Origin: Bilabrum cf. latius
Lineage: Eukaryota
Reading direction: 5' to 3'
DNA length: 64,000 nucleotides
Assembly: GCA_965178125.1 (NCBI GenBank)
Contig: OZ237738.1
Location: forward strand, 1,116,001-1,180,000
The notes beneath the pieces are model-generated. The model was not told the DNA's origin, ran no database searches, and worked only from the letters and a program-made list of their open reading frames with translations. A program made the translations under genes and the position numbers. This document shows, piece by piece, positions 34,012 through 64,000 of this stretch. Numbering within the stretch: position 1 is the first letter of the stretch; every line of letters begins with the position of its first letter.

Positions 34012-34945
34012 GCCTAATCTGACGTGGTGGTGCTAGGCGTGGCGAAACTCGACTGCTGCAAACTCAACTGCCCAACGGATTACCGATGCAAGTCGTGATT
34101 GAGGCGTATCCGCCTGGTTTCGGATGCCACCGTTTATGAGTTCGTTGGGAGGTTCCTTGGGGTTCGTCGTGAGGCCATCCACTTGGGGTGGCGGCAACCC
34201 CCTGAGAACTTGAGCCCATACACGTAGGCCTTTGTACTTGGAAACATGATGACCTTGAGAACATGCTGCGGGGGTATTTTCACGAGCACGCGAGCGTACG
34301 TGCCGCGTCACGCTGGCACGCACCGCCGTGTTTTGCCCCCCACTGCCTCGCCACGTAGGACTGACATGGTTTGCATGAGGCTCGCAGTTGCATGCGTCAA
34401 GTCAAGCCAAGCTATTGCATCGGTCCGGAGTTGCAGTTGCTGAACTGCTGCAGCTTGCCGTTCTGTCAAACGACCCGGGCGCTCGCCTTGCAGTGCTCCC
34501 CTGCCATCCGGATTGCCAGGGCGAGCAGGCGTTAGAGAGCGGGTGCACAAGCCCAGCGCGTGGACATCGCAGAGCCAGAGTATAGAGCTGCTGCTGCAAT
34601 TTGGGGATGTGACTTGAAGGTGTTTCCGCGTTTACGGGTCTACGCACTACGAACATCGGCTGACGGGGCAGTGTGGAGAATCCATCATGATTGCAGTCTT
34701 GCGACCAAGGCAGTCCAGTTTGAGCGACTGCCAGGGGGCTTGGACCGTGGAGCCGAAGTTCCACTGACGACTGATCAATCGCTGCAGCGCAGTATCAATC
34801 GATATATCAAAGGGGTAGACATACATCCACAGCTTTGTCAGTGCGTAATTGAAGCTGTGCATCAATTTTGCGCACAGGACCTGTTGCTTTGGCACCTCAC
34901 TCGACTACAAGTTGAGTACAAAGAATCGTATCCCTGTTCCAAAAA

Positions 34946-37900
34946 ATGGGATGCGGCGCTTCCAATGCAGCTGTAGTGGTAAGACACGATTCAATCGTTA
35001 CCTCCAATTAGCTGCCGTGTACCCGAACACGTAATTTTTACTCTTCAGCGCCCCAATCGATGTTCCACACTACATCAGCGGGAATTCCCATTCACGCAGG
35101 ATGACTTGCACAGCAATGGTACTTCGGAGGTCTCGTAGATACAAATTGATTAGCGTTATCGATCCGATGGCGGTTCATAGCGAGGACATGGCATTTGTTC
35201 GCCTTCATAGCGCGGCCCGTTCACTCCGGCAACCCCGGCTGCCAGCATCTGGGTGCTTGCAACGTACCGAAACGAGTCCTCCAGAGTGTTTTTTGGCCCT
35301 GGTCGAAAAGAAGGTACTGTTGTGCAAACTTGGTTGTGCAAGCAGGCGGCGAGGGTGCTCAAGAGCTTGATTCGGGCTCAAAGAGACTCTGCGAACCTAG
35401 CCGTCCCATGGGACATGATCAAAAGGCTTCGTCGGTCTCTGCCGCGCGTCCTTCCTCTAGCTTCAAAGCACCTTGATGTTGAGTCACCCCCAAAGTTACA
35501 GCTGTACTTGGATCTCGATTAGTTGTCCACCGTTGCAGCTGGGGCAGCACTGGTGCGGGACTAGTCCAGCCAGCGCAAGTCAGAAAGAAAAAGAGGAAAA
35601 GAGATCCGCCGAAGTAGCCTGACGAGACCATCTACTGCGAATCTCCTGGAACTGGCTGAAGCATCCGTGCGTATCGGCTCAGACTCGGCGGAGACCAGGT
35701 ACACGGTTCTTGGCGATGTGTACGAACACCACGCAACACCCGTTATGGCAGGGCAAACGAAAAAGGTCACAAGCAGACATGCATCAAGACATCGCGAAGC
35801 ATCTCAGTCTTTGTTTAAGCCGTCAATCCGGAGTTGTCTCCGCAATAGCAGGGGTCGCAGCCCAGATTCCACTGCGCTGGTCCTGTCAGCAAGCGACGGG
35901 CCACTGGCAGAAGCAGCCCCGGCAAATAGCACCCCACCTATGGCTAAACGCAACAGATTTGCATCGTACCGATCACAGCGAGCTCGGAAGGACGACGGCG
36001 AGGATGCTGGGCAAGTTACTGCTGGGGCCGGTCGCCCGGTAGGTAGTCTGCTCCCGCGCGTGGAAGAGGCAACCGACGAGGAGTAGAGCTCGTCTGCTGT
36101 CGGCATACAAGTGGCAGAGACCCTTCCCGGCGTGCCGCGGCACGCAGGTCCTGGATCCATGGATTCCCTGGGGCAGCGCCACGACGGCCCTCCTCCGCAT
36201 GGCAGCAGGGCCAGGGCAAGGGCCAGCTCGTTGCAAACGGCACCTGCATCAGGGTCTGCATCAGCACCAATGGAATCAAGAGCTACCGGGCCAGAGTCAG
36301 GCAGCTCTGATCGAAGCCGGATGCACGTGCAGCTGGGCGGTCTCAGCGACGACCGGTCTGGCAGCGATGCGAGCAGGTCGATCGGCACTGTGGACGAGAC
36401 GAACGTGGCTCCTGGCACCGTGGCTGGTGCCGTTGAGATCATGCAGAGCGCAGCGTCGGGTTTGCGGGACTACACGCTAGAAGGTGACATCGATGAAGGC
36501 GACTTGATGCCGGCCAGCTTTGCAAATGCACCGCTGGGCGCATCCATGTCACAGTCAGCGAGCGGGGCGCCCGTTGGACCTGGCTTGGCATCTTCTCCGA
36601 CGGCTGCAACGATCGAGAGTGAGGCTGACAGCCACAGCAGAGGCTTTGATTCCGACATACCACAGGCGGCGATCAGACTAGCTGCGGGAGTCCCAAGAGC
36701 AAAGGGTGCTGCGGGCGTCTTGCAGGGCACGAGCAGCAACAGCAACGGCAGCAGCAGCGGCAGTCGCACGAAAGGCACCTCGTCTTCCTCCTCGTCCGGC
36801 AAATCTTTGTCAAGTGCACAAATTGATCCAGCCCCGCAGAAGTGGAAGGAGTAGAAAAAACGGGAGCGCGACAGCCGGAGGAGCCAGCGTGCGATGAAGC
36901 GAAACATCACGATCCGGGGAGATGGACCAAAACCTTTACACCCAGACCCACGGAACTCAGACCTGGCGGGCAGTGATATTGCGAAATCAAGCAGCAAGAC
37001 TAGCGGACAGACCTCAAGCAGCAGCAGCGGCAACAGGCAGCCACCGCAAAGACGGAGCGAGCAGCCAAGAGCACCGCGACGGCAGCGCGTCGATAATAGC
37101 CTCAGGATTCCGAAGTCGTTCAGCGCGAGCAGCTTCGAGGGGAGCAGCGTGATCGATGGCGGGGGCAGCTCAGTGCAGGGCAATGACTCGGCGATCGAAT
37201 TTGCGGGGGCGGGCGAGAGCAGTTCGTTCGCAGAGTCGAGCTTGGGGTGGAAAACATCCGGCAGAGGTGGCAAGAGCCAGAGCTGGGGCAAAGGCAGCAC
37301 GTCCAGCTCTGCCGTGCACGGCATTGTGCTTGCCTAGAGCGGCACCAGCAACAGCAACAGCAACAGCAACACCGTGCCTGGTCCAGGAGGCCAGCGAGCA
37401 CCGCATGGCAAGAGGTACAATGCCAGAGCCGCTCTCGAGAAGCTTCACCCAGCTGAAGTGTTTCTCCCCAGCGGGGATGCCCTCCCTGTCCCTGCGGTAG
37501 ACATTGAAGAAGAGGTTGGATTCATGTACAGCGGAGACGTGGTTGGCATTTCGGACAGCGGCGCAGCGGGCGATGGCCAGAGCCGGCCAGATAGCTCTGC
37601 AACGTCAGCGCGCATACCGGGGATCCGCCAGAAGCGCAAGGTCGTCCTCTCGCCTCTTTTTGTGATCCGCATGCCTGGCGTGATCTGGCCCCAGCTCATG
37701 CGACGGAGCGCCTTCTTGAAAAGGATGAAGAGATTCCTGGGCCTCGCCACCATGGCCATGGTGCGGCTGGAGAAGAGGCATGCGGAGCCGTCCTAGGCCG
37801 AGAGGGCGAGCGGTGATATGCAGACAAGCACCGTATAGAACGCATCGGGCAGCAGGTTTCAAACGGATGCCAGCGTGCAACCGGACGTGAGTCGTTCCGG

Positions 37901-38489
37901 CAGCCAGCACGACGCGCATGGTGCTGCAGCAGGCACCTCGAATGCGAAAGCGTCAAGAGGAAATGTGATTGCGAGCGGTGCGCTTTCAGCAGGCCATGCC
38001 CATAACAACAGCACCAAAACGGTTGAGCTGGCCGTAGCAAGTGCCTCTCATGACTCGTCCGGGTCGGTTAAGGCACACTTGCACTCGCCAGGAGAGCATC
38101 GATCCCCCATTGGAGACAGGCATGGAACTCGAGGCGCTGCCGTTGGTGGTGGGCAGCTGGCAACTGAAAATGGTGAGGCCGCGTTTGCCAGTAGCATGGA
38201 GGACGAGGTGGACGAACTCGCCAAGATCGATAAGGTGAGCAGTTCGTCGTCAACCGGGCACAGCAGTGCCCCAAAGGGAGACTCAACCAAGGCCGGCGGA
38301 CGCAACCTGCCTCGGCCTGGCCGAGCATGGTCGGCTACACCACGCACCACTTCAAAGCAGGCCGCAGCACCACAAGCTCGGACGGGATCTGTAGCTAGTT
38401 CTAGGCTCGGAAGCTCGGTGGGAAGCAGCAGTAGGCACAGGAGTGACATGAGCGTGGGATCAGGCGCCAGCACTGCCGCGCCCAATTGA
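34946..38489 (+). CDS. Hypothetical protein with MGCGAS N-acylation motif, member 3 of the three-paralog family
   Basis: Exon 1 34946-34978 (MGCGASNAAVV), intron 34979-35099 (GTAAGA..CGCAG), exon 2 35100-38489 with 11 TAGs, ends TGA. Blocks SRVFFGPGRKEGTVVQTWL and VVLSPLFVIR..FLKRMKRFLGLATMAMVRLE. Confidence 0.78.
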
Positions 38490-44035: not shown

Positions 44036-47000
44036 TCATTGGCCAGTGAGAGCAGCGTGTACTTGAGCCGCCAGCTCTCTCTACGAAGGGTGGCCTCTCA
44101 GGAGGTTCGAAGCGATTCGAAGGGCCTCAAACGTCGCCTTCGGGTCGCCCCCGCCGTCCGCCATGTGCGCGTCCAAGGCGGCCTGGGCTCCAGCCGGGAC
44201 ATACTTGACGCCGCAATCGAGCAGCACGAGGGCCCGGTACGGGCTGTTGCTGCTAAGCCTGTCTGCAATCTTGACTGCGGCTTCTGAGCCGTCCCTCTGG
44301 CAGGCAAGGCACTGCCTCGCTGGCTCGTCCCATCGGATGCCCGGAGGCGCGTACCGAACGGCGTTGCACAACGCAAAGATCTCGCCGGGCCCGTCCACCT
44401 CCGGCATGGCCTTTGCGGCTGCCTCCATGGTAGCACGCCACCACCTGCTAGAGTACTTGTCTACCCCGAGTGCCTCGCGGATTTCATCCGCCATCCGGGC
44501 AGCAGGCCCAGCCAGATCGGAGCCCCTCGCTTTCCCGTTCAGCGAGATGCAAAGCAGGCTCACAATCGTTTCCTACCCGCTCTGGCCGCGCAAAGACCCG
44601 CGCGATAGCTTCAGGCCCTCCTCCGCCTGCTGCTGCATCCGCAGGAGGTCTGAAGCTGATTTCGCCTGCTGCGCCATCACCTGCAGGAAGACCTTGTCCG
44701 ACGCGGACACTGGGATCTTGGCGGCATTGGAGCCGCCCGTCTCCCCCCTCGCCCCGACGGCACCACCAGCCTCTGCGATCCTCCCGTCCGCAGCCGCTGC
44801 AAGCGTCCCCCGTGCCCCACTGAGCAGCATGGCGCGACCCGTGCGCGCGCTGCACGCCTGTGCGCTCTGCAGCTGCACCTCGGCCAGATCCAGAGGCTTG
44901 CGCAGGAACGCCAGCAGCCTTCGCAGCAGCGTGGAATCCCGTCTCCTCAGCGCGCTCGCAAGCACCGGGATGGCGCTGCGATGCGACGCCACCAGCGCAA
45001 AGAAAGCCGCCTCCAGTGCGCGGTCCTCGATCTCCTGGGAGGTGAGCCCTCCACGGCTCGGGTCGTCGCCTGCGTGCGCCGCCCGGAACGCCTCGTATGC
45101 CTGCCTGCCCTCCGCTTCAGCCGCCGCAAGGACCCGCTTGTCCACGATGAGCTCCCGCAGGGCGAGCAGGGCGGTGACGAGGAGGTCGGATCTGCTGCCT
45201 GGGTTGGTCTCCCCGGCCTCTATGGCTGCCTCGAGCGCACGCTTCCCGAGGCCCATCCGCAGCAGCAGGGGCACCCTCCTCTCTGCCTGCGGCTCGCGCG
45301 CGAGCAGACGTCCCGCCAATTCGGTGTTGCCTTCGTGGTACGCGAGCGCAGCAAGATCGCCCACGTTCACCCTCTGTGAGGCCACCCTGGCTGCCCTAGC
45401 CAAAGCGGCTTCGTTCCCAAGCAGTTCCTGCCAGGACTGGATCGGTCCGAGAGCGTCCGGCTGCACGGCTTTGGCCAGGCTGAAGAGGATGGACGCCTCG
45501 ATGCTCGCCGGGGATGCACTGCTCCCGCCCCTCCCACCGCTCGCGCCGCCACCCCCATCCGTCCGTCTGTTAGCTACCAGAGCCGCGGCCCATTCAGCGA
45601 TGACTCTCCCTCGGGTATCTCCGCCAGCTGCCTGCCTCTGACCCCCGTCGAGCTGTCTGAACTGGTCTGCCACCTGAAGGGCCTTGCGGAAGGACCCGCG
45701 CCCGGACAGCCGATCCACGACCGCGTCAGGGCCCAATGCCTGCCACTGGGATGACGTCAGAGGAAACACGCAGCGGTGGTCCGCCTCGGCGCCGTGGTTG
45801 CCTGCAACTGAGTCCACCACGCCCCGAAGAGCAAACAACACCCGCATTCGCCGCGCAGCCGCCGCGAGCGCCGCAGAGAGCGCCATCTGCGGCAGCTCCA
45901 CGGCCCCAGTCACGGGCCCGCCCTCGCCGTCCATGCCGTCCTCGGACAGGGCCCGGTCCTCCGAGCCCTCCTGCCCGTCGGCACCGCCATCACCAGCGCC
46001 AGACGCGGGCTCGCCGCCAGGACCACCTCCACGTTGTCCGGCGTTCAGACCGACGATCCCGGTGTCTTCCGCAGTGGGCCTCGCCACCGAGATGCCCCAG
46101 GCAGCCGAACCGAGGAGCTTCCGGCACAGGCCAGGCGTGCCCGCGTCCTGCGCGGCTTCGATCAGCTGAAACACCGCTGTGCGCAGCTGCCCCTGCTGCC
46201 TCAGGCTTCTCACCTGCTTCTCCGCCTCGGCCTTGCCCTTCTCGGCATCCTGGCTCGCTGCCAGCAGCAAGGCGCACGGCTGCAGGCTGCCTGCCAGTAG
46301 CGTCTGCGACAGGGTTAGCGGCACGGGCTCGAGCCGGAAGGTCTGTCTCTGACCCACGATCCTGACAGAGTCCACGTCAGTTCCCAGGGCACACGCCATG
46401 AGTCCGCCTCCCGGGAGGGGCACCCTCAGGCAGGCCCCTGTGTTCCCCACCAGCAGGGCTCCCGCCTGGTCCGAGTCGGATGCGATCACGCTCAGGTCCG
46501 GCGGGGGCGGCCAAGACACGACCACTGCGTCTTCCGTGCACCACGCGAGGTGGTCGGGCGAGATGGGGCACTGCAGCTCGCAGTCCAGGTAGCACTGCTC
46601 GAGGCTTGCGCCGCAGATTCGCAGGTGGCCTCCGCCGGTTACAATCGCCACGTACTGCGCAGATGGCGAAGGGCAAATCATGATGGCGGGGCTGACGGGA
46701 TCCAAAGCTGCCCCCGCCGCATTCAGGTCAGTTCCGACGCCGTTGGAATCGATGGCTGCAAGAAGTGGCTTGCGACCGGATGCGCCCAGTACCACCACAG
46801 GGAACACGGCGCCCGCGCCATCCTCATCGTCCTCGCCAGCTTTCGACTCCACGCCGGCTGCCCTGCCACCCTTGCGACCTCGCCTGGCCGACTTGCCGCT
46901 GGCCCCGGCCCCCGACGCGGCTCCCGCCTCGCCGTCGTCCCCGTCGTCGCCTTGTTCCCTGGCCCTGGTGGCCGCTGCCCGCATCCATGACTTGGCAGCC

Positions 47001-48060
47001 TCCGGCAGGATGGGCTGCAGGATGGCCATGCACATGGGCTCCACGCCCTGAGGCAGCCCCGTGGACTTTGCCTGCCGGAATGCAAGCTCGTCCGCGAACA
47101 CGTCTGGGATGCACCAGACGGAAAAGTCGTCCACGATAGCCGTCTCCACTCCCGGGTCTATGGCAGGGTCATCCCCTGGCCTGCGGGGGCGGGGCCGCTG
47201 CACCTGCTTCTGCGACTGCACCACGACTGCAACGGAGAGGCTGCCCACGGCTGCCTTGAACACAACGGGCTCTGTGCCGCCCCCGAAGCCGCCCGCTGAG
47301 GAGCCGCCCCTCTTTTGTTCCCTGACAGCAGGCAGACGGACGCAGGCGACCTCCCTACCGCCTAGCGGCGCGTGGCTGCGGAGAAGAGACAAAGAGGGGT
47401 GTACGCTGTTCAGTGGGCAGCAGCGAGATGGGGGCATAGGGACGTGCGCGGCGCGGTTGGTTCAAGCCCATGGCTAGAATGCATTACTGAGCAATCGAGA
47501 CGGTCCCGGCTCATTCGCTAGCAGACTCACATGGTGACGATACCTTGCTGCCACACGCAAATCAGGCGCTCTGATCCGTCCCAACCCATATCGACCAGTG
47601 CGCCGCGCTCTTCAATGCTAACGGACCCATAGGCATTTCCGGGTCGATCGCAAGCTCCAATTTTAACGCCATCAGGGTCGTAGATCCTCGGTACAAGCTC
47701 AGAATCGGCTCGCACACGTCCTAGGCGCAGCCCAGCTCCGGCACCTCCGGATGACGGACGGGGAGCAACTGCAATAGGCCCAGAGAAAGGCGCAATACGA
47801 ACAATACAATCTTCAAATGAGCCCGGCCCACGCTGACCTCCATCCCTCCAGCTCATGTTGCACAACCGAGGCATGCGAAACATGCTTGCCTCGGATCCGT
47901 CATCATCATCGTCAAAATCATCGAGCCGCACCCAGCCATATGAAGATTCGTCTTCATGGCCTCCAACTGGATCTTCCCCAAATGTTGCAACGAGCGTGTT
48001 GCCGTACTCCTCTGCGGCATCTCGCTCATCACCTAGGTCTCCTCCAGCAAGAGCTGCCAT
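44036..48060 (-). CDS. VPS16: Vacuolar protein sorting 16 (HOPS/CORVET core subunit), 2 exons
   Basis: Exon 1 48060-47531, intron 47376-47530, exon 2 47375-44036. Motifs IAPFSGPIAV, MGWDGSERLICV, LAWCTEDAVV, PLTSSQWQALG..VVDRL, VPLLLRMG..ALEAAIEAGE, RWW. TAGs at 44573 and 44081; ends TGA. Confidence 0.9.
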
Positions 48061-48710: not shown

Positions 48711-51700
48711 ATGCTGAGGACCTCCGGGCAAACCGCTTCTGCGGAGCAGCACCTCTCCGGCATGAAACAGAAATAGAGGTGCGGGGAGATACTGCACAGT
48801 ATAATTACCGGTGCCTTGAACCTAGATGAAATTGCCGACGCAGTGAGGCCATTAACGCTTGCCTATTCTTGGTGCACCTGCGCTTGTTGATTGATGCTGC
48901 TGCCAGTAGTGGCATTGCCTGTGCTCCATGTATCACCTCTTTTGACCGCAGACACCAAGCATGATTCGTTTATTCGTCCAATCAGCTCTAGCACACGGTC
49001 TTCGATTGGAAGTGAGCGGATTCCGACAGATAGTTTTTCCCACCGTTCCATACCTTGCCACCCCAGTCAGAGACTATAGTAGTAGCCCTTCCAGCCCCCT
49101 CATACGCCATTTGAACAACTTCACACGTATATATATATAAACATTGCATTATTTCATTAGGTACAGAGGGGCGGTTCGATTCTGCATGCGTCTGTGCAGT
49201 CGATGCAGATCAAGCTGACAGAGGCCGTGCTTTCCACAGGACCTCGCATTGATGCTCGTAACAACGTAAGCACGAGCTTATCCGTTGCAATCGATTGCTT
49301 TATGATACAATTAAATCCTCCTGCATGTATTCGATGATTGCTGCATGGTCTTGCACCAAGCTCGCAGCACGGGGACACGCCACTGCACCTAGCTTGTAGC
49401 TATGACCACCCCAACGCGGAATGGATCGTGAGCATGCTATTGGCGGCAGGGGCCTCGACCAAAGCTCACAATAACGTAAGAAAGCGCCCAAGCAGTACCT
49501 GACTGGGATCTTGTTGTGCGCTTGGCCTCCTAGCTAGAGTCTCACCCTCAGCTGCAAACTCAACTTTCGTTGTACGCCTCTTGCACTCAGTGTGTGTAAC
49601 GTTGTGCTGCAGGCGTCTCTATCTATGCGCTGGTTGGTGCGCGTGCTCCCAACAAGGTGCCACGATTCCAGCGCCACATCTCCACGGTCCGATCAAACCG
49701 GAACTCTCCGCGCGCTCCGACTCCCAATTTGAAACACCCCCGGGGGGGCTCACCAAGTGCAGAAGCTAGCTACCCAGAACCTACGATCATATACAATTCT
49801 CCGTATATTCTGAACTTGAACGGCTGCAAACCCGAGGATGCCGCCTTGCTGTAGCAGTGAGTACGTCAGTAACGGTGTGAGAACCCATCCAGATCAATGT
49901 TTCGCAGGATTCTCGCATGCCGATTGATGTGGCACGGCGCTGTGGACTGCACAGTATTGTCGCTATGCTGGAGTGCGAGACTGCATCAAAGTCAGCGGCG
50001 GCCACGCTGGCGGGGCATTCGACCTGCGAGCAAAGCAAGGTGTCACGGAATGGTGCTAAGCCCTCCGATACGCCGACCTAGACCGCCATGGGAGCCTACA
50101 TTGCTAGGGATGCCGATATGGCTGCGACACTATTCGATGACAGGGAGAGCTTACGTCGACAGATCGAGATGGTTGGTGGCGTGAGTAAATCATTGCTCTT
50201 GACGAGCGTGCACCACTTTTCGATCTTAAACGCAGTACAACGCCGGCCTGCCTCGAGCCAGTATTTAAGACGACGATGCCAGCCGTGCAATGCTTGCCAC
50301 CACTCGCAGCACGGATACACCATCCTCCACTACGCTTCTATCGCGGGTCACGACAAGGCAGTCAAAACGCTTCTCGACCTGGGTTGTGATCCCAACTGCA
50401 CTTCCGAGGTGAGCCATTGTGATCTGCAGATCTCCTACAGGGTGCTCTTCCCCCCCCCCGGCGGCTGAGCTGAGCTGGAGCTATCATGGCGAGATGGCTG
50501 TCTGGAGCTAGACGCCCTGCCTGTTGTGATACGATGTGCGCCATCCCGGATCCGGATGCATTTGCAATTCACGACTGTATTCTCAAAGCGGTGCACTTCA
50601 TTTAGGCTCATTACGCAGTTTGGCTGGACACCGCTCCTGCTTGCTTGCAGTAGTGGAGTCCGGAGCAGCCGAGTTGTTCGTTTACTGTTGCAGCGAGGGG
50701 CGGATGCGACCATTAGCGACGTGGTAAGTTTCATCAGTGTCAACTTGATCCCAGGTACGAATTATGTGCACTCAATGTAGCACAGTGCCGCCTGTTCCGA
50801 GTGTCTGCCTGCCCCAATCGATTGCTCTATCGAGGTCCAGCGCTGCACCTGGTCTTACAACTGCACGACACTCTATGCATGCTGCACACGTCCCGCGCAG
50901 AATGGCACGCTTCCTATCCACGCGGTATCCTAGGCCGACACGGATAATGCTGCAAAGATCATTCCTATGCTGTTAGCTTCAACGCCTGTATCAGACCCAG
51001 ACGTCAAGGTTAGTGGCCCTCGAGGCCGGACTCAGTAGGTCGATTGTGCAGGCAAGATGTCGACTGGCAACCCACACATGGACTGGCAATCCGAAGGAGT
51101 ACAGGGTGCAGCATCAAGCATGATGAAAGATTAAATCTGAGTGCACGTAAATGGGCTACACTAGTCTTGCTCTTTGTTCCCCTCTTTGGATCGCGCAGGA
51201 CAGCGAGGGGCGGACGCCGCTCCAGCTCGCAGTGGCATGTGGCAACCTGTGCTCCGTGCGCAATCTGATCCAAGCCGGTGCCAGAGTGAAGAAGGAGGGT
51301 GGAGATCCTGTTTTGTGTGTGAGACCTGCGCGGGTGATTTGAGCACTTGCTGCAGAATTATCTGTTAGGTATGCGCTCCTTCACGCTGTCCCCGATGCCT
51401 CGATGCCTGTTGCTCCGATGCATCGCAGGGCTCCAGCACGATCATGCACTACGTCGTCAAGGAGCAGTGCGCTGCAACGCTCCGCCATTTACTGAGCATT
51501 GGTGTTGATCCCATGGCTGTAGACGGCGTGAGACTATGAATTGCCACTGCTCTGCAACTCGCCACATCATCCCGACACCCGGATCGTCCGACATTTCCTC
51601 ACGCTGCGCTTGTAAAACAAATCATTCATGGTTTGAATTGTCGGTATCTGAAGCCCAATCGTGACAATTTTGCTACTTCGAGTACCTATCGCAGGACGGA

Positions 51701-52627
51701 AAGCTACCCATCCACATCGCTGCCGAGCAGGATGACGCTGACTCGATCGTCTGCCTGCTCAGGCACATGCCCTTCACCACTTCCCGCCTGATGATCAAGC
51801 ACGACCAGCACGGAGAAGAGTACAAGCAGTCGATGCAGCTGCACGGCTTCCGTCTGCGCGGTGACCAGCTGCTGCTGCACCGCCGCGCCCATCGCGCCAG
51901 AGAAGATGCCAAGAGGGTGTTCAGGGCCGCGGCAGAGGGCCGCCCGATGGAGCTCGAGAAGCGGTTGAAGTTCGGTGCACTGGCTGGCGGTCTGGAGATT
52001 CGTGGAGCACTTCATTGTGGCGTGGTGTCGCAGGTGCTGGAAGTGGTCGGTGCTGTGGGGCTCGATAGGGCTGACCCAGATGCTGCTGAGTGGAGCATGA
52101 GTGCAGACTACCGCACGGCCCTCACTGCTGGCGCTGACGCACCTATCGAGCCGCCTGCTGCGGGGCAGCTGACTATACCGAAGCCCGGTGCAACAAGTGA
52201 GCAGCACGGCAGTTCTTCGGCGAGCGCTATGTCAGAGCTAGCTACTATCTCCAACGCTACGTCGGCCGCGAGTGGCCTAACAAGCAGCTTCGGGCCGGCG
52301 ACAGTCCCGCGATACGTAGCTGTCACATGTGGTCCTTTTGCGGCTGCTATCCTTGGAGACCACCAAGACTGCCTCAAAGTGCTATGCGACGCGCTCTTGG
52401 ACTTGGCTGGACCGTCGGTCGGGTTGCAAAACCAGATTCTCAGTGAGCAGTTCGTTGCGATCCCGAGCGACGGCGCCCAGCGGGCTGCTATGGGTGCGCA
52501 GCTGCGTTTATTCGTGCTGGAGAAGGTGGCTCATTTTGGCAACAGTGAGGATATTGATCCGGCAATCATGGGTCGTCTAGCTACTGTGATGATTGAGCGG
52601 ATCGCGAAGCCTCAGGCGCGAAAGTAA
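48711..52627 (+). CDS. Ankyrin-repeat protein A, 11 exons
   Basis: Exons 48711-48842, 48952-49011, 49167-49265, 49368-49475, 49908-50180, 50310-50408, 50619-50723, 50901-51008, 51199-51318, 51429-51527, 51695-52627, all introns phase 0. Repeats HGDTPLHLAC, HGYTILHYAS, FGWTPLLLAC, EGRTPLQLAV. TAGs at 48774, 50079, 50931. Ends TAA, but the 3' end is uncertain. Confidence 0.8.
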
Positions 52628-53388: not shown

Positions 53389-56300
53389 ATGCCACAAATC
53401 ATCGACGCTCGGATTCTGGAAAGGCTCCGAACACATGAGCTCTCAACAGTGGAATGTCGAGAAATGTACGATATGGTGTTGGACGGGAGAATCAACTTTG
53501 ATGAGACGGTAGAGCTCGACCAGGTGAGTGCATGCACTGAAGCTGCAACTGCAACTGCACCCATTCATGGGAATAGCACCCAATTTCAACCAACTTGATT
53601 CCATTTCATGCGTGCAGCCAGACAAGAGGGTAGTTAAATCGTTTGTGCATGCTTGTGGCGCACACGGTATCCAACACAGTGTGAGACTAGAAATTCTGAG
53701 GCTACTGTTTGCGAGCAGAGTGTTGCGATACGGCCCGCCACTGATGCACCGTATGCTTGATATCGCAGGACGGCCAAACGATGCTACATATAGCAGCAGC
53801 AGTCAGCCAGATCACTCTTGTGGAAGCAGTCCTGGCCACGGGTGCAGATGCGAACTACAAGAGCACTGTGAGCAACCTGGTTGGATAGCACCCTTCGTGG
53901 CGATTGGAAGTCATTTAATTGGTAATTTTCTACTCGCATAAGGATATTATAATTGTATTATAGCCCTTTCGCACCCTGCAGGGAGGTGACACCCCTCTGC
54001 ATATTGCCCTCAGAGCCAACCAGAAGCACCCCTCTGCGTCATCGAGGGTCGTGAGCATGCTGCTAGGAGCTGGTGCCTCCCCTCTCGAGCCAAATGGTGT
54101 AAGCTACGAATAACTAAGCTTGCTATATATTTTTGTGCTTTGATAGCGGTGCATTACTTCGCTGGTGCCAGCTTGAAAATCGGTAGCCGGGATCGCTGTC
54201 CGTCCGCCCAATGGCTCGCTATCATCAAGACCTCTCTTGAGATGTCCCCTCTACATGCTAAGCCCCACCTTAGCAGCGTCATCGATTCCTGTGATTTCTT
54301 CTTCGCAGGCTGGCGAGACCCCTCTTGAGTTGGCAAACCGCATGCACCTCAGCGAGCTCGCTGCAATGCTCGAAACAATGGTGCATGAGCACCCACAAAA
54401 ATCCCGTACCGCTGCGAGTGCCTGGTCCGGGCCCTCCAACACCTCGGGAAAACCACCTTCCGGCTGGGGCCCAGGCCCAGGCTGGGGCCTAGACGACCGA
54501 GGTGCAACCGGTGATTCGCCTGCTCCACATGTTGAGAGCGCTGGCAAGCCAAAACAGACCATCCTGGAAGCGTATGCAGCTGGCGACACCGAAGTGGCTC
54601 GCAGCCTATTCAAAAACGAGGGTAGCATGCGGAAGCAAGTCAATGACTTGGGCCAAGTGAGTCTCATAGAACAATTAGCAGTTGGAATGAAGCTGGCTGC
54701 TTGGCGGACATGGTCAGGCGCACGAGAGCGACTCCGGGTCGTCGGTCGTCTACATCGAGCCGTTCCATCAACCACTATACATGCGCATGGCAAAGACTGT
54801 TCTATCCCGCAGTATGACTGGACACTCCTGCATTTCGCGGCTCGGGCTGGGCATGTTGAGGAAGCCGAGCAGCTGCTGTCGGCTGGGTGCGACGTCAATG
54901 CGCAGTCTGTGGTGAGCGACGTGGCTACATGTGCTGATGCAGTCTGTTGCACCGCACCCTTCTCTTAACGAGGCACAACTCCCTGTTGTCATCCGCCGTT
55001 GACTAGACCGAACATATATTACACTGTGGCACCTCCATTCGCCACATCGCAGTTCGGGGAGACTGCCCTGCTGGTGGCATGCTAGGCTTGGCAACGACGG
55101 CGGGACATGATCTGTCTCCTGCTCCAACACGGTGCAAATGCAGCTCTTGCAACATCCGTGAGGCGGTACTCGTTCTGTTGGCTGCACGTAGCTTCTCAAT
55201 AAACTTATGTGGTCGCGAAAAGTAACATTGCAGCATTCCAATCGCTCCGGTCTGCGTCCACGAATCCCTGCCATTCACCGCAGGCAGGCGTGCTCCCATT
55301 GCACTACGCCCACAAAATCATAAATGACGCTGGTGGTTGGTCCGATAACAAACCCACGGACAAGGACGGGGCATGCGTCGCGATGCTCATCGCTGCGGCT
55401 CCAGGGCTCCATCCCGACACAAAGGTGAGAGAAGGTGGCAACTGCCAGTGCCACTCGCCGATGAAAACATGTAAACGAGTGCTCATGATTTGCAAGCGAA
55501 GTGTGCTTGTCGTGAGGTGGTGTGACGGGTGCTCTTGTCTTGCTTTGCTGTCCTGAAAACTCGAACGCAGGATCCCGACGGTCTCACACCACTTCAGCTA
55601 TGCATTATGAACCACAACATGCCAGCCGTCCGGAGCCTCGTTAAGGCGGGTGCGCGATTGCGGGATGCAAATGGACAGCCAGTCAGGGCCGTGAGTCGAA
55701 GGTTTGCGCTGTGCACTGCAAGGCTAGGTTCGCAAGACTGGCCATTCGACCTTGTCGTTTCCCTCCCCCCCGACGGACCGGTCGTCGTCTCAAACAGGTA
55801 GCAATGCCCCACAATCAAGGCCTTATACCGCAGAATGGCACGACACTGATGCATTTTGCAGCCCGTCACAAGTGCATCAAGACCATTCAGCACCTGCTGG
55901 GAAACAAAGTACAATCGACAGCCTATGACGATGTGAGTAAGAGCCAGGTATGTGTAGCTCGGGCAAGCATCAGACCGTAGTTGATGGCACGGTTGCACGC
56001 GTGCATGCCCAGATCTCAATTTGCAGGACCAACGCCTACCCATCCACATCGCTGCCGAGTACAATGACGACAACTCGATCGTCTGCCTGCTCAGGCACAT
56101 GCCCTTCACCACATCCCGCCTGATGATCAAGCACGACGGGCACGCGGGGCGTATCAAGCAAGCAATGATGAAGAAAGACTTCCGTCTGCGCGGTGACCAG
56201 CTGCTGCTGCACCGCCGCGCCCATCGCGCCAGAGAAGATGCCAAGAGGGTGTTCAAGGCCGCGGCAGAGGGCCGCCCGATGGAGCTCGAGAAGCGGTTGA

Positions 56301-57838
56301 AGTTCGGTGCACTGGCTGGCGGTCTGGAGATTCGCGGGGCACTGCACGAAACACCTGAACTGCTACAGGAGCTATCCAAGGTGGTGTCAAGTTGGGAAAA
56401 GACAGTTATTGCGCGGGACAAGTCGTGCTGGTCGACAGACGAGTCCTCGGCGTGGTCGGGAGCAGAGCAAGCAGAGAAAAGTTCGATACGGCCTGCATTA
56501 ACAGCAACAGGTGATACCCCGGCGTGGCCTGCATCAAGCACACCAGATGCTGCCCCGGCGTGGCCCGCATCAAGCACACCAGATGCTGCCCCGGCGTGGC
56601 CCGCATCAACAGCAACAGGTGATACCCTGGCGTGGCCTGCATCAAGCACACCAGATGCTGCCCCGGCGTGGCCCGCATCAAGCACACCAGATGCTGCCCC
56701 GGCGTGGCCCGCATCAAGCACACCAGATGCTGCCCCGGCGTGGCCCGCATCAACACCAACAGGTGATACCCTGGCGTGGCCTGCATCAAGCACACCAGAT
56801 GCTGCCCCGGCGTGGCCCGCATCAAGCACACCAGATGCTGCCCCGGCGTGGCCCGCATCAACAGCAACAGGTGATACCCTGGCGTGGCCTGCATCAAGCA
56901 CACCAGATGCTGCCCCGGCGTGGCCTGCATCAACACCAACAGGTGATACCCCGGCGTGGCCTGCATCAAGCACACCAGATGCTGCCCCGGCGTGGCCTGC
57001 ATCAACACCAACAGATGCTGCCCTAGCGTGGCCAGGATCAAGCACACCAGATGCTGCCCCGGCGTGGCCCGCATCAACCACACCAGACTCAACCCCGGCT
57101 TTGCCCGCAGCATCGGCCAACGTAGCTGCACCAGAGATGGACGTCGTGTCATCTCCTGCGCGTGACTTGCCCGCAGGCGAGACCACCGAGTTGGAGCGAG
57201 ACCAGCCCAAGACCGAAACCACTGGCAGTGTACTACGAATCCTGCCTGATGCCAGCGGGGCAAACCCGATTGTCTGCGGCCCGATCATGGCAGCTGCTGT
57301 AGGTGGCCATGATGAGTGCATCCGAGTTATTTTGAACCATCTGCACAGAAGGCCTAACAAAAATGGGTGCGCAGTCGGGACCAACGCTATCGCGTAGTCT
57401 GCAATTCGAGTACACGCCGCGGTTGAGGCACAGGCACTCGAGTTGCCACCATCTCGATTGAGACACGACCAAGATTAGAGTATATCCTTGGAGGTGGTCA
57501 AAGTGACTCTCAGCGAGTTCCCAGTTCCCAAGGCATGCCCAAACAGCTGTCAGCACGGGAGGCGCCCGCTAGAGCAGATGGTTGAAATCGCTAAGTGGTA
57601 CTGCGCGGCACCAAGCCAAGTCTAGCCTCGCTTGAAGGAGTGGAGGCCAGAGCAACGGCGTTAGGGCGTGGTTCGTACTAGTAATGGGACTAGCCGACGA
57701 GAGACGACTTTTCGCGTTTGGCGAAGGAGGAAGACTGTACGTCAACAGAGACACAGACGCACTCTACGTCAGCAATCTGACGATGACACCGCCACCGGTG
57801 GTGAAATCTTCCGGATGCCATCAATGTCAGCGTATTGA
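53389..57838 (+). CDS. Ankyrin-repeat protein B, 11 exons, tandem paralog of A
   Basis: Exons 53389-53523, 53618-53680, 53769-53867, 53982-54098, 54309-54656, 54813-54911, 55053-55157, 55284-55424, 55571-55690, 55834-55932, 56027-57838. Exon-for-exon homologous to A. TAGs at 55083, 57395, 57476, 57623, 57662; ends TGA. Confidence 0.82.
56519..57094 (+). repeat. Coding minisatellite: 16 x 36 bp encoding PAWPASSTPDAA and variants
   Basis: Unit ccggcgtggccYgcatcaagcacaccagatgctgcc, with variants ending TATGDT or TPTGDT; lies in frame within the last exon of ankyrin gene B. Confidence 0.95.
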
Positions 57839-58015
57839 TATTGCTAGTACTAGAACTGGACAGGGAACAATATCTGATGGTCAAACTGCACCCTTGCATT
57901 TGTGTAGATCCGATCCGGATCCGGACGTGACAAAGGAACTAGACAAACAAACGTCTGTGCAACATCTGGATGCCTTAACACAGCCCGTACCCGTTGCCTG
58001 TGGTTGGCACCTCGA

Positions 58016-61000
58016 TTACTTCTTCGAAGCTTTCTTCACCTTCTTCTCCTTCTTGGATTTCTTTTCCTTCCTATCCTTCTTGTCCTTCTTTTCTTTTTTG
58101 CCACTGGGACCGCTACTAGGTTCGACGGCAGGAACTTGGCTGACACCGGCTGACGGCCCAATGCCATGGGTGAGTGCAAGTGCACCTGCCAATTCTGCTT
58201 CATCACCATCGCCATTGCTTCCGCCGGCACCTGCGACTCCTTCCTCTTCGACATCAGCTGAGCCGTTGCACACAGCAGAAAGAACCGCGTCCATCTCGCC
58301 CCGATGGCTCGTCCACAAGCTGCTAGCGCTAGCAACTACATCAGTGCTCGCTCCAGATACTGCTAGCAGATCAAGAGGAGGCGCATCCCACGCGCGGACC
58401 CGCCCCCCTTCCTCCGCTTCAACCAGCGGCCGTAGCGACCGAAGACCCTGCTCGTAGGCAGGCACCAGCGACTCCCACGCCCGAGGACTCGCGTCGATCC
58501 GCAGCATCGGCTTAGCTCCTCGCGCGATCGCCTCGTCTTGTTCCCTGGCACGACGGGCCATTCGGACCGCCCGCCTGGCATCTACCGCGGCTGCCCCGGC
58601 TGTCTCCTACTCATTGGCGCTGCTGCCCGCCGCCCGGTCGGCTGCCTCAGCTGCCGCCTCCTCAGCTTCGTCCACGTCCATGGCAGCACCATCGGCACTC
58701 CTGCCCACTGTGCTCAGCAGCACGTATTCGCCTGCCATGGCACGACCTCCGAGAAACCTCCTCATCTCCATGGCAGAGCACAAGGTCAGCGCCTCGCCGG
58801 CGCGGCGCGCCCTGGCGGTCCTACCCACCCGATGGACGTAGGCCTGCGCCGCGGCCGGCGGGTCGTACTGGATTACCGCGTCGAGCTTCGGCATGTCAAG
58901 ACCACGAGCGGCAGCGTCGGTGCACACTAGGACGGGACACGCAGCAAAGCCTGCCGCGGCCAGCCGCAGCAGCTTCTGTCTTGTTCCCTAGGGCATTCCC
59001 GACGAGTACTCGAAGACGGACTGCTCGGCACTACCCGAAGCACCTGGTGCGGACTTGTTAGCCGTTGCTTCACCCGTCTCTGCGGCGTCAGGATCCCAAT
59101 TCAGGCCGTCTTCTTCACTAATATCAGCCTCATCGGCGCTATCTTGCATATCAGCCTGTCCGCTGCTGCTGCTGCTCGGCCCACCCAGTGCCTTGCCTAC
59201 ATGTGTGCCTTCCATGGGGACTGCCGAACTATCGACGGCGGGACTCGCACGGGCAGGCGGGGGCACCTGCATGAGCTACAGCAGGCGAGTGAGACGATGT
59301 GCGCCATCCACAGACCCAGCAAAGACCAGCGCCTGCTTGCCCAGCTTCCACAGCCGAAGCAGCTCCAGGGCAAGCAGCAGCGGCTTCTCGGCCGCCTTGC
59401 ATACTGCCACGGACTCCCGCAGCTTCCTAGGAACCCGACTCAGCGTGGTGACAGTGCCAGCCGCCAGACCCGCACCAGAATCACCGTCCTGCATGTACGA
59501 AGGCGGGGGGACGACCATCACTTCGCCCACTCCCAGAGCGGCCATCCTCATCGGGTCGCTGGTCATCGTTGCGCTGCACAGGACCCTGATGAGTCCGGGT
59601 GGGCCCGCGGCTCGCTAGGCAGCGGCTTCTGCAGCGGATGAGGAAGCAGAAGAAGATGAAGAGGAGCCTGCGCCGCTGCTTGGGCCCCTGCTCCACCGCA
59701 TGTCATGGCCAAAGAGGCCAGCCGGCAGACCGAGAGAGGCCGCCTTGCCACCCACCCTCGAGGTGTCTGACCTGGCGTACCTGAACCCCGCCGCGTTGCT
59801 CGAACCACCGAGACCGAACACGCTCTCCTCGTCTGCACTGCCGTGCGATGCATGCTAGCAGCTCGCAGAGGCAGGCATTCTCCTGAGCGCTTCCCGAAGC
59901 CTGGCCAGCCAGCCCGTGCGGATTGACCCAGACGATCCTAGCAGCCTGTCGGCCTCGTCCAGCACGAGGAACTGGAGGTGCTCTAGCGTGAAACCAGGCG
60001 TTTCTTCCAGGTGGTCCACCAACCTGCCTGGGGTGCACACCAGAATGTCGGGAGGCGAGCCGGCGAACGGCACCAGCTCGCCCTCACCGTCCACCGCAGC
60101 ACCATCGTCCTGGCTGGACGGCTAGTCCCCTGCACTCGTCACGATTGGCCCTTCGATAAGCCCAAGAGCCAGCTAAGCAGCCACAGACACCCCCGCCAGC
60201 GACTCGGCACCGCCGGACTTGGCCAGCAGCGAACGTTCCTTGGCGAAGTCCGACTGCCCCACGGCAGCGGTGACCCGCAGGGACGTGCCCTTGCACAGAG
60301 TGCGGAACACGCGGTGCACCTGCACGGCCAGGTCTCTGGTGGGAAGTATGACGAGTGCCCTCAGCCTCGGCACAGTCCTGCCCAGCAGCCCCTGAACAAT
60401 CGGCAGCGCGAACGCGAGCGTCTTTCCGCTACCAGTGGGCGCGACCAGACAGAGGGTCCGAACGCCTGGGTCCATGGACCGATGCGCGTGCATGAGAGCG
60501 GGTACCCCATGGGACTGCACGGGGAACAAGGGCGCTTCCGCGATGAGTTCTGCGGCGTTGCGGCACACTCGCTCATGAAGGCCGAACTGCTTCAGGGCCT
60601 ATACCCCCGCCTTGACCTCTGAGAGGCGAGATACCATAGAGCGAGGAGTCGCGACTGATTCTGCGAGCTTTGGGAGTGCTGTGTACTTTCGGAGCGGCGT
60701 TAGCACCGAAGAGGCGAGCTGCGCTTGCTGCAACGCGGCGGCGGCGTAGTCGACAGTTGCCGACGCACCTCTGCCATCCTGGCCCAGGGCGCCTTGTTTA
60801 ATCAAACCGCGGCGAGTGGCCGCATTAAGATCAACGGATGTTCGAAGGGCGGAGCCGATCGCAGCAACAGCAGTGAGTGCTGCAGCGGACTCGATCGCAG
60901 CTCGCTTTTTCTGCGGTTCATCCTCGTCGGGCTCGGCGATGGCTCCCGCGGAGCGACTCCCAGCCGTTGAATCGCCTTCATCGATATCACTACGACCAAT

Positions 61001-61153
61001 TTCTGCTCGGGATCGTTTGCGGGCCGATACTTTGGCGGCAAGCTTGGACAGCAACGTAGACTGGGCCCCGGAGCCTTCGCCCTGGGGAGAAGCTACCTCG
61101 GGCTCCTGCTCCGACGCTGGAGTGTTTCCATCAAAACGATCAACTGAAAACAT
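58016..61153 (-). CDS. DDX51: DEAD-box RNA helicase DDX51/Dbp6, 1045 aa
   Basis: ATG 61153 (MFSVDRFDG) to TAA 58016. Motifs [59 protein letters not shown] in order across 8 in-frame TAGs (60599, 60173, 60122, 59855, 59615, 59276, 58988, 58607). Lys-rich KKE/D tail. Confidence 0.95.
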
Positions 61154-61282
61154 AGTTGGCGACAGTGACTCGCCAAATTGTCTGTAAAATGAGCACACAA
61201 AATGTTCCTTCGGTCGGAAGTACCGAACGTTCGGAAGTGGTTCGCTAGAATTGATTGCCTGCGGCCACCTGTCATATTTGGC
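61154..61282. promoter_or_regulatory. Probable bidirectional promoter (DDX51 / TTC12)
   Basis: 129 bp between divergent ATGs; contains the palindrome CCGAACGTTCGG (61223-61234) and two TCGGAAGT copies. Confidence 0.5.
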
Positions 61283-64000
61283 ATGTCATCGTCCGGCCCA
61301 AGTTCTGCTGACGTCAAGAAGGCCGCTGCAGAGTTGGACAAGATCCATGCAGCACGTGGGTAGGCTGTTCCGAGCTCAGATGACATCAATTCGTTCGTAA
61401 GCCGAGCAGATGAGGTAAGTTGCCGTTTCGAACGAAACTGAGAGTGCCTTTGCGTCGAAACTACCGCCTACGGTGTCGCGTCAATGATAGCAATGGTTAA
61501 CTTCAATGCCGCAAGTGCAGGTCGCCCGACAAGTTAAGGCGCTGGCAGACGGCAAGATAGACCCCGAGGATGTCGAGGCTGGCATCACGCAAACTGCCGA
61601 GGAGATGGAAAGAGAGCGGAAAGAGCGCGAGGAGAAAAGGATTGCTGCTGAAAGAAAGCTGCAGGATAAGCTTGCCGAGGCGGCAAAGAAAGAGCGGCAG
61701 GAGGAAAGCGAGAGATGGTGGCGATTCGCAAAGTTTCAGTTTAATGACATTGGTGCACCAGGAGCCGCAGACCTCCTGCGCGAAGATCTTGACTGGATCG
61801 TAGAGGCTGAGAAATCTGCTAGAGATTCAGAAGAGGCGGAAGACTCCGCGCATGCAGCTGCAGATGGTCCCAGTTCTGAGAGCAAGCACGGCGGGGCTTC
61901 CAGCGGCGCCGGGGCTGCCGTGGTGGAGGCGCGAACAATCGGCGAATCGGCGCCCATCGACTACACCAAGTGGGACGAGCTTGCGAAGAGGGCAGACGGT
62001 CCCATCTACAAAGAGGATTTCGAGGAGATCGAGCGCCTCAAAGAAGAGGCCAAAGACCGCCAGTTCGAGGAGAGCAATCCAGAGTTCGTGGCGAACTTTC
62101 TCTCGGACCAGAAGAAGAGGGAAGAGACGCGGAAGAAACGAGCAGACGACGCAGAGCGGCTCAAGAAGCAGGGAACAGAGGCCTACAAGGAGGGACGGCT
62201 GGACCACGCCATGGGCTGCTGGCTCGAGTCGGTGCGGCTGGTGCCTTTCCAGGAGCAGGTGCTAACCAACGTCGCACAGCTTTGCATCCGCATGGGCAAA
62301 CCGGAGGAAGCCCTTGAGTTCGCCCGGCGCGCCATCTTCATCGCTCCGGGCAATCCCAAGGCCCTCTTCCGCCGCGCCACTGCCCGACGCGTACTCAAGG
62401 ACGTGCATGGGTGGGCCGCGGACATGAAGCGCGCTGCGGAGCGCGCTCCAAAGGACCTTAAGCTGTCCTCGCAGGCCCAACAGGCTGCTGAGTTATCGGC
62501 ACAGCTGCGCAGAGCCGAAATCCTCGACCATCTAGTGGCTGGCACCTCACTTGGCAAGACTGCTAGATCAGGATCTGGATCGGGATCGGGCAGCGGCGTC
62601 GCAACGGGTGGGGGCTCTGGTGGTCTGAGCCCTGCAGTTGTGGAGCTGCTGCGCGAAACGAGCGAGGCAATCCACGGCTTGCCCGGCTTTGTGGTAGGGA
62701 GGGGGGATGAACAGCCGGGCGACACGACATAGGATGCTGCGACCGGGGCCACGCCATCCGGATCGGTGGCACCCTCTGGCGGCAGCAGCCGCAGTCCTGC
62801 CCGTGGGTCTGCAACAGCAGCTGCGCAGCTCCAGAAGCTAGTCAACTGCGTGCTCTCTGCAAGCATGCAAAGCCAGCAGAGCACAGGAGGTGCGGCACCT
62901 TCGGCAAGCACGGAAGACTCTCCACGCGTGCTGGTGCGAGCACTTTTGCTGCGGACCGGTGCCCTTACTTTCATCGCGAGAGGCCTGGTACGACTGCTTG
63001 AGTCAAGCGCGGGCCAGCCAGGCACGGCGAGCGCGCAATCACGGGAAGCTGTGCGCGAGCTGGACCTGCCTGGTCTCGCGCTGTCCTCCACTGGAGCCAC
63101 CAAGTCTGCCTTCAACCTGCTGACAGCATCCGTCTCTGGCACCGCCAGCTCCTGCAGGGAACTATTGCAGAACCAGGGAGTACTAGGCGCATGCGTGCTT
63201 TTCCTCACTCACCTGAGCGGGCTGAAGTCGCCCTCGGAGTCCTGCACCGCAGCGGATATTGCGGCCAGGGGGATCGCGAGCGGGAAGTCCCCCGCTGGCC
63301 CGGGAGTCGAGGGACTGGTGAAGAAGAAGGACTCGGTCAGGTGGGCTGTCGCTCGCCATGCCCTCCGATTCCTGCGGACCGCGTGCGGGGCAGAGTCGCC
63401 GGAGCAGGACGCGTCTGCCATGCTGTGCCTTTCGGAGGTGCTAGTCGGCTCGCAAGTCCTGGAGGCAAGCACTGCATCAGAAAAGGTAGCCGCATCGAAA
63501 CCAAGGCCGAGCGTCTTCGCGCCGCTGGAAGAGCGCGTGAAAGGTAGTGGGCCATCGGCTGGAAGCGCTGCTGCTTCTGCAGCCTCACGGAAAGACTCTG
63601 AAAGTGAGGGTGGTGAGCTAGGCCCCCGTGTGCGGCATGGGGGGTTGCTAGCACCTGCAGCTGCGCGGTAGTTGTCCAAGGCAGCAGGACGTGGCAAGAC
63701 TGCTATCGCGCCTCAAATCGGCATCGCAAAGGTCATCTCGGCAGCAGCGGGTGCGTTTGGCCCGGGGCCGATTGACATTGCGCTCATGACACGATAGATG
63801 GTACAAGGAACTCGCGGGGGGGTGGACAAAGGCAGCGTAGATGGCTCGCTGGGGGCAGAAATGCAAAGGCACGGACAGGTGGTGCTGGGCGGTATGGAGG
63901 CATTGGAGCACGCTTGCGAGCTACTATCGGCGGCATGCACGCCTCGTGTTCGCAGGGCTCTCCCGGCCCCCGTCCGTCAAGCCATGGATGCATCCGGATT
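61283..64000 (+). CDS. TTC12: TTC12-like TPR protein (ciliary dynein assembly), truncated by the window edge
   Basis: Exon 1 61283-61414, intron 61415-61520, exon 2 from 61521. N-terminal DDINSFVSRADEV, FLSDQKKREE..AERLKKQGTEAY and three TPRs, followed by a helical region. TAGs at 61361, 62730, 63669, 63795. Confidence 0.75.

Follow-up and report, generated by a model that had tools for sequence, protein, structure and literature searches.

Nuclear genetic codes that uncouple UAG from UAA are rare. In the account of Panek et al. (2017, PMC5304391), the fornicate Iotanema spirale, known from its transcriptome only, reads UAG as glutamine (Gln) and keeps UAA and UGA as stops. The same assignment, NCBI table 15, has been described for the ciliates Hartmannula sinica, Trochilia petrani and Protocruzia tuzeti (McGowan et al. 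2024, PMC11687900), in which 58-70% of the in-frame UAGs were found to fall on conserved Gln and, according to the results given there, UAG has no dual meaning. Here we analyse a stretch of 64,000 nt from contig OZ237738.1 (positions 1,116,001 to 1,180,000; assembly GCA_965178125.1, deposited under Bilabrum cf. latius), hereafter the window, and within it a DEAD-box helicase gene whose reading frame is crossed by TAG triplets. The helicase is very probably an intact, transcribed and intron-free gene of the DDX51/Dbp6 type, in a GC-rich nuclear genome that reads UAG as Gln and UAA and UGA as stops. The code itself is already known; the window is a further member of the rare nuclear codes in which UAG and UAA have been uncoupled, its composition being unusual and its code shared with one relative or more. 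All coordinates below are window positions; the helicase lies on the minus strand and its codons are numbered from the ATG.

The helicase gene and its TAG codons

Translation of the reverse complement of 58016-61153 opens with the ATG at 61153-61151 and continues for 1045 codons to a terminal TAA at 58016-58018. The frame contains exactly eight internal stop triplets, TAG every time, in agreement with a preliminary description of this DNA. That description had the helicase core spanning all eight; six of them (codons 327, 344, 433, 513, 626 and 722) indeed lie between the Q-motif and motif VI, but codon 185 precedes the Q-motif and codon 849 follows motif VI. Its statement that the DEAD-box motifs are intact and in order was borne out by locating nine motifs, recognised by their generally known consensus, in one copy each and in canonical order: Q at codons 209-213, I at 238-245, Ia at 271-276 (PTRDLA), Ib at 374-378, II at 399-402 (D-E-A-D), III at 527-529 (SAT), IV at 608-614, V at 745-753 and VI at 774-781. 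Pfam analysis returned DEAD (PF00270, 1.4e-27, 96.9 bits with a cut-off of 26) and Helicase_C (PF00271, 2.7e-15, 57 bits with a cut-off of 23.5).

For the protein search the TAGs were masked as X, so that the alignment columns are unbiased, and the best 120 relatives were taken. Their E-values reached 7e-71, with identities of at most 37% over 65% of the searched region and at most 47% on shorter alignments. A subfamily name was attached to 48 of these best 120 relatives, and it was DDX51, DBP6 or dbp6 in all 48 and no other, as expected from the DDX51 identity first proposed for the gene; the named sources were mainly stramenopiles and Mortierella-type (mucoromycote or zoopagomycote) fungi, matches that do not amount to a phylogenetic position for the organism. 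PDB chains of other DEAD-box subfamilies matched far more weakly, the best being DDX18 (DDX18/Has1) at E 1.1e-30. We accept the gene as DDX51/Dbp6-like by best-match naming and shared subfamily blocks rather than by phylogeny. It has in common with DDX51/Dbp6 the blocks HRL.RLLQ and EFSS.L.Q..R, a conserved C-terminal block and all nine motifs. With 1045 residues it is much longer than the homologs listed (577-1303, mostly 600-900). Insertions rich in Ala, Gly and Ser that separate the motifs account for the extra length, together with a long extension of the C-terminus that carries a Lys-rich tail. DDX51 of animals and Dbp6 of yeast are nucleolar DEAD-box helicases of 60S subunit biogenesis, and a role in pre-60S assembly and a nucleolar location would be predicted for the present protein from orthology alone.

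The meaning of UAG was read from a MAFFT alignment of the helicase query with the best 120 relatives. Of the 120 homologs, 113 have Gln in the column of TAG626 (HRLTRLL*LM), with K in 4, E in 2 and S in 1, and 70 have Gln in that of TAG722 (EYSSGMP*GTR), with K in 29, A in 7 and S in 6. Gln is thus the best residue in both conserved columns, as the preliminary description had proposed for these two TAGs, which it had correctly placed at 59276 and 58988. Past the last TAG lies a C-terminal block, query positions 880-919, at which an average of 90 to 102 homologs out of the 120 have aligned residues; the conserved protein can therefore be made only if each of the eight TAGs is read through.

Evidence for transcription came from contigs of sequencing runs whose kinds are guesses, no run being recorded as RNA for the stretch. 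In neighbouring genes, 12 of the 15 joints listed (10 more joints lie beyond the listing) are of the GT..AG type in runs X6-X8, and contigs joined in this way in X6, X7 and X8 imply that these runs hold processed transcripts. Over the helicase, the X6 contig (57049-61152, 4104 nt) and the X7 contig (57861-61169, 3309 nt) are colinear with the window, with no differences and no gaps, and the latter begins 16 nt upstream of the ATG and stops 155 nt beyond the TAA. Over the helicase, the contigs of four runs show zero differences, which indicates that the TAGs are neither spliced out nor edited, and no canonical joint lies inside the gene among the joints listed. Two non-canonical joints touching the gene were rejected as introns: 58973/59668 (TT..GC, side 21, X5 only), which falls inside the gene, and 46835/58079 (CC..TT, side 21, X6 and X8), which ends in the low-complexity Lys-rich tail; both were judged repeat or foreign-contig artefacts of Lys-rich or low-complexity sequence. 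Across 57700-61400, 77-100% of the sampled words were present in runs of four coded organisms; these runs belong to four studies out of the five listed.

UAG and UAA in the window and on a related contig

The pattern seen in the helicase extends over the whole window. Under the standard code the longest frames measure 1044, 963 and 701 codons, and with TAG as sense they grow to 2187, 1722 and 1386. Treating TAA as sense leaves the longest frames nearly unchanged; treating TGA as sense yields 83 frames of at least 300 codons, compared with 25 under the standard code, and the longest rises barely, to 1172 codons. The 17 long window genes comprise 15,267 codons and contain 82 in-frame TAGs, no TAA and no TGA, together with 421 CAG and 121 CAA. 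Recognisable eukaryotic genes lie in these long frames, among them Vps16, a CEP104-like gene, a mitochondrial carrier, an Ariadne-type RBR ligase and an RNI-type LRR protein. The GC content is about 60%, and UAG makes up about 13% of Gln codons. Sixteen of the long genes are complete, of which 15 end in TGA and one, the helicase, in TAA. The base after the terminal stop is T in 10 of these 16 genes, and that after in-frame TAG is G in 29, C in 21, A in 18 and T in 11 cases; the excess of T after stops may be a termination-context preference, seen here in a small sample.

A relative sharing the code was found when window gene 136-2217 (693 residues, five TAGs) was compared, without a profile, with 1.84 billion representatives. 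The search returned 286 relatives, including the short fragments P0124, P0177, P0235 and P0232 at 62-89% identity, and several fragments map to one metagenome contig, L001 (1-12806). On L001 the ortholog of 136-2217 forms one 785-codon frame ending in TGA if TAG is a sense codon, and the public fragments are pieces of this frame, cut at TAG by standard-code gene calling. The ends of P0124, P0177 and P0235 fall just before in-frame TAGs of L001 at codons 329, 437 and 657, which face D236, Q344 and Q564 of the window gene; the last residue of P0124 lies opposite the window gene's own TAG at codon 233.

Aligned codon by codon, the two orthologs share 674 positions, 454 of them identical (67%). 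Opposite the 11 aligned TAGs of L001 the window gene carries Gln seven times (CAG six times, CAA once), Arg twice, and Leu and Asp once each; opposite the five TAGs of 136-2217, L001 carries Gln once (CAA), Leu twice and Ser twice. Gln is accordingly the partner in 8 of the 16 TAG-versus-sense pairs, and the TAGs paired with it stand in well-conserved contexts. When the 16 pairs were scored with BLOSUM62-derived conditional probabilities, Gln came out 3.7 log10 units (~5000-fold) ahead of the runner-up, Arg. Of the 38 Gln residues of 136-2217, 17 face Gln and 7 face TAG in L001, so that counting TAG as Gln raises Gln conservation from 17 to 24 of 38, near the levels of Leu and Ser in the same alignment. 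L001 as a whole contains 47 in-frame TAGs, no TAA and no TGA in 3,893 codons, with UAG at about 26% of Gln codons, and its six frame ends comprise four TGA and two TAA. Synteny with the window is partial: on L001 the 136-2217 ortholog comes immediately after the C-terminal end of the 4077-8228 ortholog, and the GT34-like gene at window 2580-3854 is missing between the two. L001 also codes a GRK-like kinase with RGS and AGC kinase regions (best PDB matches GRK6/GRK2, E ~1e-77) and a GST-zeta.

Among the alternatives, the one that survives best is that UAG also serves as a terminator in some genes, which we nevertheless consider highly unlikely. It can draw on the short tails that several genes show past their last TAG (8, 14, 17, 21 and 36 codons). 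However, L001 has kept the 8-codon tail of 136-2217 (KWGPL), the 79 TAGs of the 16 complete window genes are present in every decile of gene length with no depletion toward the 3' end, and every long frame continues to a TGA or TAA near the next gene.

Slightly less probable again is a code of the ciliate/hexamitin type (NCBI table 6), in which UAG and UAA are both Gln, UGA is the sole stop and the helicase would be 44 codons longer, ending at a TGA. Such a code would follow the rule that in almost all known nuclear cases UAG and UAA have changed together (PMC5304391), and it fits the TGA ends of 15 of the 16 complete long genes; TAA would be rare anyway in a GC-rich genome, and the plus-strand frame 34392-38489 is open but for a single TAA at 34980-34982. 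What speaks against it is chiefly the absence of TAA from coding frames. If TAA were Gln with the same G/A bias as the CAG and CAA counts, 23.6 in-frame TAAs would be expected in the 15,267 codons of the window in place of the zero observed beside 82 TAGs (Poisson P(0) ~6e-11), and from the CAA/CAG ratio of 51/86 about 28 would be expected in L001, where again there are none beside 47 TAGs. The long frames occupy nearly all the space between neighbouring genes, so that hardly any fragment severed by a TAA could fit in. The sequence ahead of the TAA at 34980-34982 has no similarity to the N-termini of the paralogues of that gene and a weak codon-position GC structure, and looks non-coding.

Termination at UAA can also be seen at individual genes. 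A codon-usage log-ratio trained on the other window genes gave +0.48 for the last 44 codons of the helicase and -0.19 for the 44 codons from its TAA to the next in-frame TGA, the latter being at the non-coding level: the lowest 44-codon window inside the helicase frame scores -0.09, and the stretches behind the TGA stops of other window genes score -0.42 to +0.04. A second in-window TAA end is that of the terminal exon of an ankyrin paralogue (51767-52627). On L001, the alignment of the GST-zeta with mouse maleylacetoacetate isomerase (223 residues) extends to residue 217 of the mouse enzyme, and the TAA of the GST-zeta follows 16 residues later, near the conserved C-terminus. That UAA terminates and would not encode Gln is well supported by these sequence comparisons. 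The preliminary description had taken the TAA directly behind the Lys-rich tail of the helicase as a stop, and also as the best evidence in the window for the decoupling of UAA from UAG; the first part holds, whereas stronger evidence for the second is the count of no in-frame TAA against 82 TAGs, backed by the TAA end of the L001 GST-zeta.

A third alternative, that UAG is a sense codon for a residue other than Gln, appears as improbable as a shared meaning of UAG and UAA. Precedents exist, with UAG read as Leu in the rhizarian exLh, as Ser in Scotinosphaera, and as Glu or Lys in some ciliates and trypanosomatids, and among the 16 ortholog pairs Leu (three), Ser (two) and Arg (two) do occur as partners; at helicase column 722, Lys stands in 29 of the 120 homologs. 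Against this, Gln tops both conserved helicase columns as well as the scoring of the ortholog pairs given above, and 7 of the 11 L001 TAGs face CAG or CAA, codons one transition away from TAG. An alignment of three divergent paralogues in the window offered one usable column, in which TAG faces Q and N. Least probable of all is that the TAGs are untranslated, through a pseudogene, unrecognised introns, RNA editing or assembly errors: the standard code breaks the helicase eight times and GT-AG introns exist in other window genes, but the frame is kept across all eight TAGs with the motifs intact and two TAGs inside conserved blocks, the contigs of four runs show neither differences nor, among the joints listed, a canonical joint in the gene, and the pattern is common to all long window genes and the L001 relative.

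The reading of UAG as Gln and of UAA as a stop has to be held against several observations that weigh against it. Six of the eight helicase TAGs sit in insertions or variable columns and are silent on the residue, and half of the ortholog pairs have partners other than Gln (Leu 3, Arg 2, Ser 2, Asp 1), although these lie in variable contexts. The TAG columns of the mitochondrial carrier, compared with PDB alignments, show N/D/E and T/K/R, and the TAG of the GRK-like kinase of L001 faces E/H in PDB GRKs; both are uninformative. The zero count of TAA is partly circular, as the genes were delimited as frames free of TAA and TGA. Direct evidence for termination at TAA within the window is thin, with just 1 of the 16 complete long genes ending in it, and the next in-frame TGA, 44 codons past the helicase TAA, lies within the X7 contig, which by itself cannot exclude read-through. 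The helicase contigs could in principle be derived from DNA, since X6 is marked as probably DNA and X6-X8 have no RNA record. Finally, a scan for tRNA genes in the window and L001 found none, so the mechanism is inferred, and the release factor eRF1 is not encoded in the 64-kb window. Homolog searches with the mitochondrial carrier and the Ariadne/RBR exon gave no match at the thresholds used and hence neither further TAG columns nor a clue to taxonomy, and an Rfam scan at the gathering threshold returned zero matches.

By analogy with what has been proposed for Iotanema (PMC5304391), reassignment would require a tRNA-Gln with the anticodon CUA, which would decode UAG and could not pair with UAA; such a tRNA probably would have arisen from a duplicated tRNA-Gln(CUG), one base away. 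On the side of termination, eRF1 would have lost or weakened its recognition of the third-position G of UAG. Efficient reassignment, as outlined in the same paper (PMC5304391), usually comes with changes in the eRF1 N-domain that weaken this recognition. The N-domain elements listed there are GTS, NIKS, YxCxxxF, E55, S70 and L69, and T32G is the change given for Iotanema.

Features of the gene and its surroundings

The features of the helicase gene are collected in Table 1.

Table 1. Positions of the helicase gene, its TAG codons and other elements in the window
Feature	Position	Strand	Basis
Helicase coding sequence, DDX51/Dbp6-like, 1045 codons + TAA, without intron	58016..61153	-	Frame, Pfam, best matches, colinear contigs
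TAG codon 185, N-terminal to Q-motif, unconserved column	60599..60601	-	Gap in 118/120 homologs
TAG codon 327, variable insertion between motifs Ia and Ib	60173..60175	-	Gap 52, D 21, E 10, K 10, Q 4
TAG codon 344, variable insertion	60122..60124	-	Frame and alignment
TAG codon 433, insertion between motifs II and III	59855..59857	-	Frame and alignment
TAG codon 513, variable column just before motif III	59615..59617	-	V 32, gap 29, A 21
TAG codon 626, read as Gln, within conserved HRL.RLLQ block that follows motif IV	59276..59278	-	Homolog column
TAG codon 722, read as Gln, within conserved EFSS.L.Q..R block that precedes motif V	58988..58990	-	Homolog column
TAG codon 849, C-terminal insertion upstream of conserved C-terminal block	58607..58609	-	Frame and alignment
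Motif I (Walker A), APTGSGKT	60419..60442	-	Motif search
Motif II, DEAD	59948..59959	-	Motif search
Motif VI, codons 774-781	58811..58834	-	Motif search
Conserved DDX51-type C-terminal block, codons 881-912, after all eight TAGs	58418..58513	-	Homolog occupancy
Lys-rich C-terminal tail, codons 1018-1045	58019..58102	-	Translation; codon-usage score
TAA termination codon	58016..58018	-	Frame; coding-score drop behind TAA
Probable 3' untranslated region	57861..58015	-	End of X7 contig (contig ends are weak evidence for RNA ends)

Upstream, a gene for a TPR protein stands head-to-head with the helicase, whose contigs have their 5' ends at 61152 and 61169. The ATG of the TPR-protein open reading frame, at 61506, falls within a GT..AG intron of 106 nt (61412-61519) whose joint is present in X6, X7 and X8, and the gene must therefore have its start further upstream.

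On the other side lies an ankyrin-repeat gene (53400-57838, plus strand), for which joined contigs of X6-X8 support at least 10 GT..AG introns, with joints from 53520/53615 to 55932/56027. Its paralogue at 49917-52627, also on the plus strand, has its last exon at 51767-52627, with 89.5% identity over 325 nt and a TAA end. This ankyrin stretch is lower in GC and rich in introns, unlike the long genes in the rest of the window, which have few. Tandem repeats at 56490-57112, with copies 81-92% identical, code a TPDAAPAWPASS-type repeat in the last exon of the ankyrin gene, and the read depth peaks over the same interval in all runs. A BLAST comparison of the window with itself for TAG-versus-sense paralogue pairs found one match of 325 nt and the tandem repeats, with no TAG in the part examined.

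The three divergent paralogues mentioned above are located at 24002-26266 (plus strand), 26464-29715 (minus strand) and 35106-38489 (plus strand). They are 27-28% identical, have no Pfam match, and share an N-terminal block VFF.PG...Q.WL and a C-terminal block V.SP.F...L..M...LG...V.L; one of them begins with MGCG, resembling an acylation signal. In 35106-38489 the conserved N-terminal block stands ahead of the first ATG, which makes an upstream exon likely. Two other genes are apparently split by introns: Vps16 on the minus strand (44036-48060), with an N-terminal exon at 47530-48060 and a main open reading frame at 44036-47437, and the Ariadne/RBR ligase on the plus strand, at 11636-12676 and 12982-13815.

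Significance and comparison with known codes

The uncoupled nuclear genomes named in the literature amount to a handful (PMC5304391 and PMC11687900, as far as these accounts go). Each further case tests whether mechanism or an accident of history couples UAG to UAA, and shows a route to an eRF1 blind to one third-position purine. A GC-rich genome with UGA as its usual stop, in which UAG takes the shares of Gln codons found here and in L001, is awkward for a simple 'codon capture' under AT pressure. There is also a practical consequence, as standard-code gene calling shreds the genes of this clade, and table 15 has to be used to annotate both this genome and the metagenome contigs related to it.

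As to the origin of the code, we propose tentatively, leaning somewhat against rather than toward it, that the window organism and L001 represent an undescribed clade of GC-rich eukaryotes, neither ciliate nor fornicate and with at least two species, which would possess CEP104-like (cilium-associated) and mitochondrial-carrier genes and would have uncoupled UAG from UAA independently, with UGA as the main terminator. Were this so, table 15 would have arisen independently once more, this time under pressure toward GC instead of AT, and the clade would provide chromosome-scale DNA in which the changes in tRNA-Gln(CUA) and eRF1 are directly readable. Full-text literature searches listed no code with UAG alone as Gln for a GC-rich non-ciliate besides Iotanema, although the present code may already have been published.

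Codes in which both UAG and UAA are Gln (NCBI table 6) occur in many ciliates, hexamitin diplomonads, some ulvophytes, aphelids and oxymonads. The window resembles them in reading UAG as Gln, presumably via a tRNA-Gln with the anticodon CUA, and differs at UAA, which is also Gln there, whereas here it is missing from frames that hold 82 TAGs and it ends the helicase. Reassignment of UAG alone is further known from the rhizarian exLh (Leu), Scotinosphaera (Ser) and phyllopharyngean metagenome-assembled genomes from TARA (Leu). With these the window shares the decoupling of UAG from UAA; the amino acid is another one, Gln being favoured here by the ~5000-fold figure of the ortholog pairs.

In the code itself the window agrees with Iotanema spirale, in which likewise UAG alone is reassigned, and to Gln, while UAA and UGA remain stops; in the data described for it UAG was never seen as a terminator, and its share at Gln-dominated columns was similar to that of ordinary Gln codons (PMC5304391). 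The two differ in the use of stops, UAA being predominant in Iotanema (104 of 119 complete transcripts, PMC5304391) and TGA in the window (15 of 16 genes), and the present genome has about 60% GC and encodes a mitochondrial carrier protein. The ciliates with UAG as Gln only have the same code table; in them UAA ends 93.5-100% of the C-terminal alignments (PMC11687900), in contrast to the TGA-dominated ends found here, where the DNA is moreover a long piece of GC-rich chromosome that has GT-AG introns.

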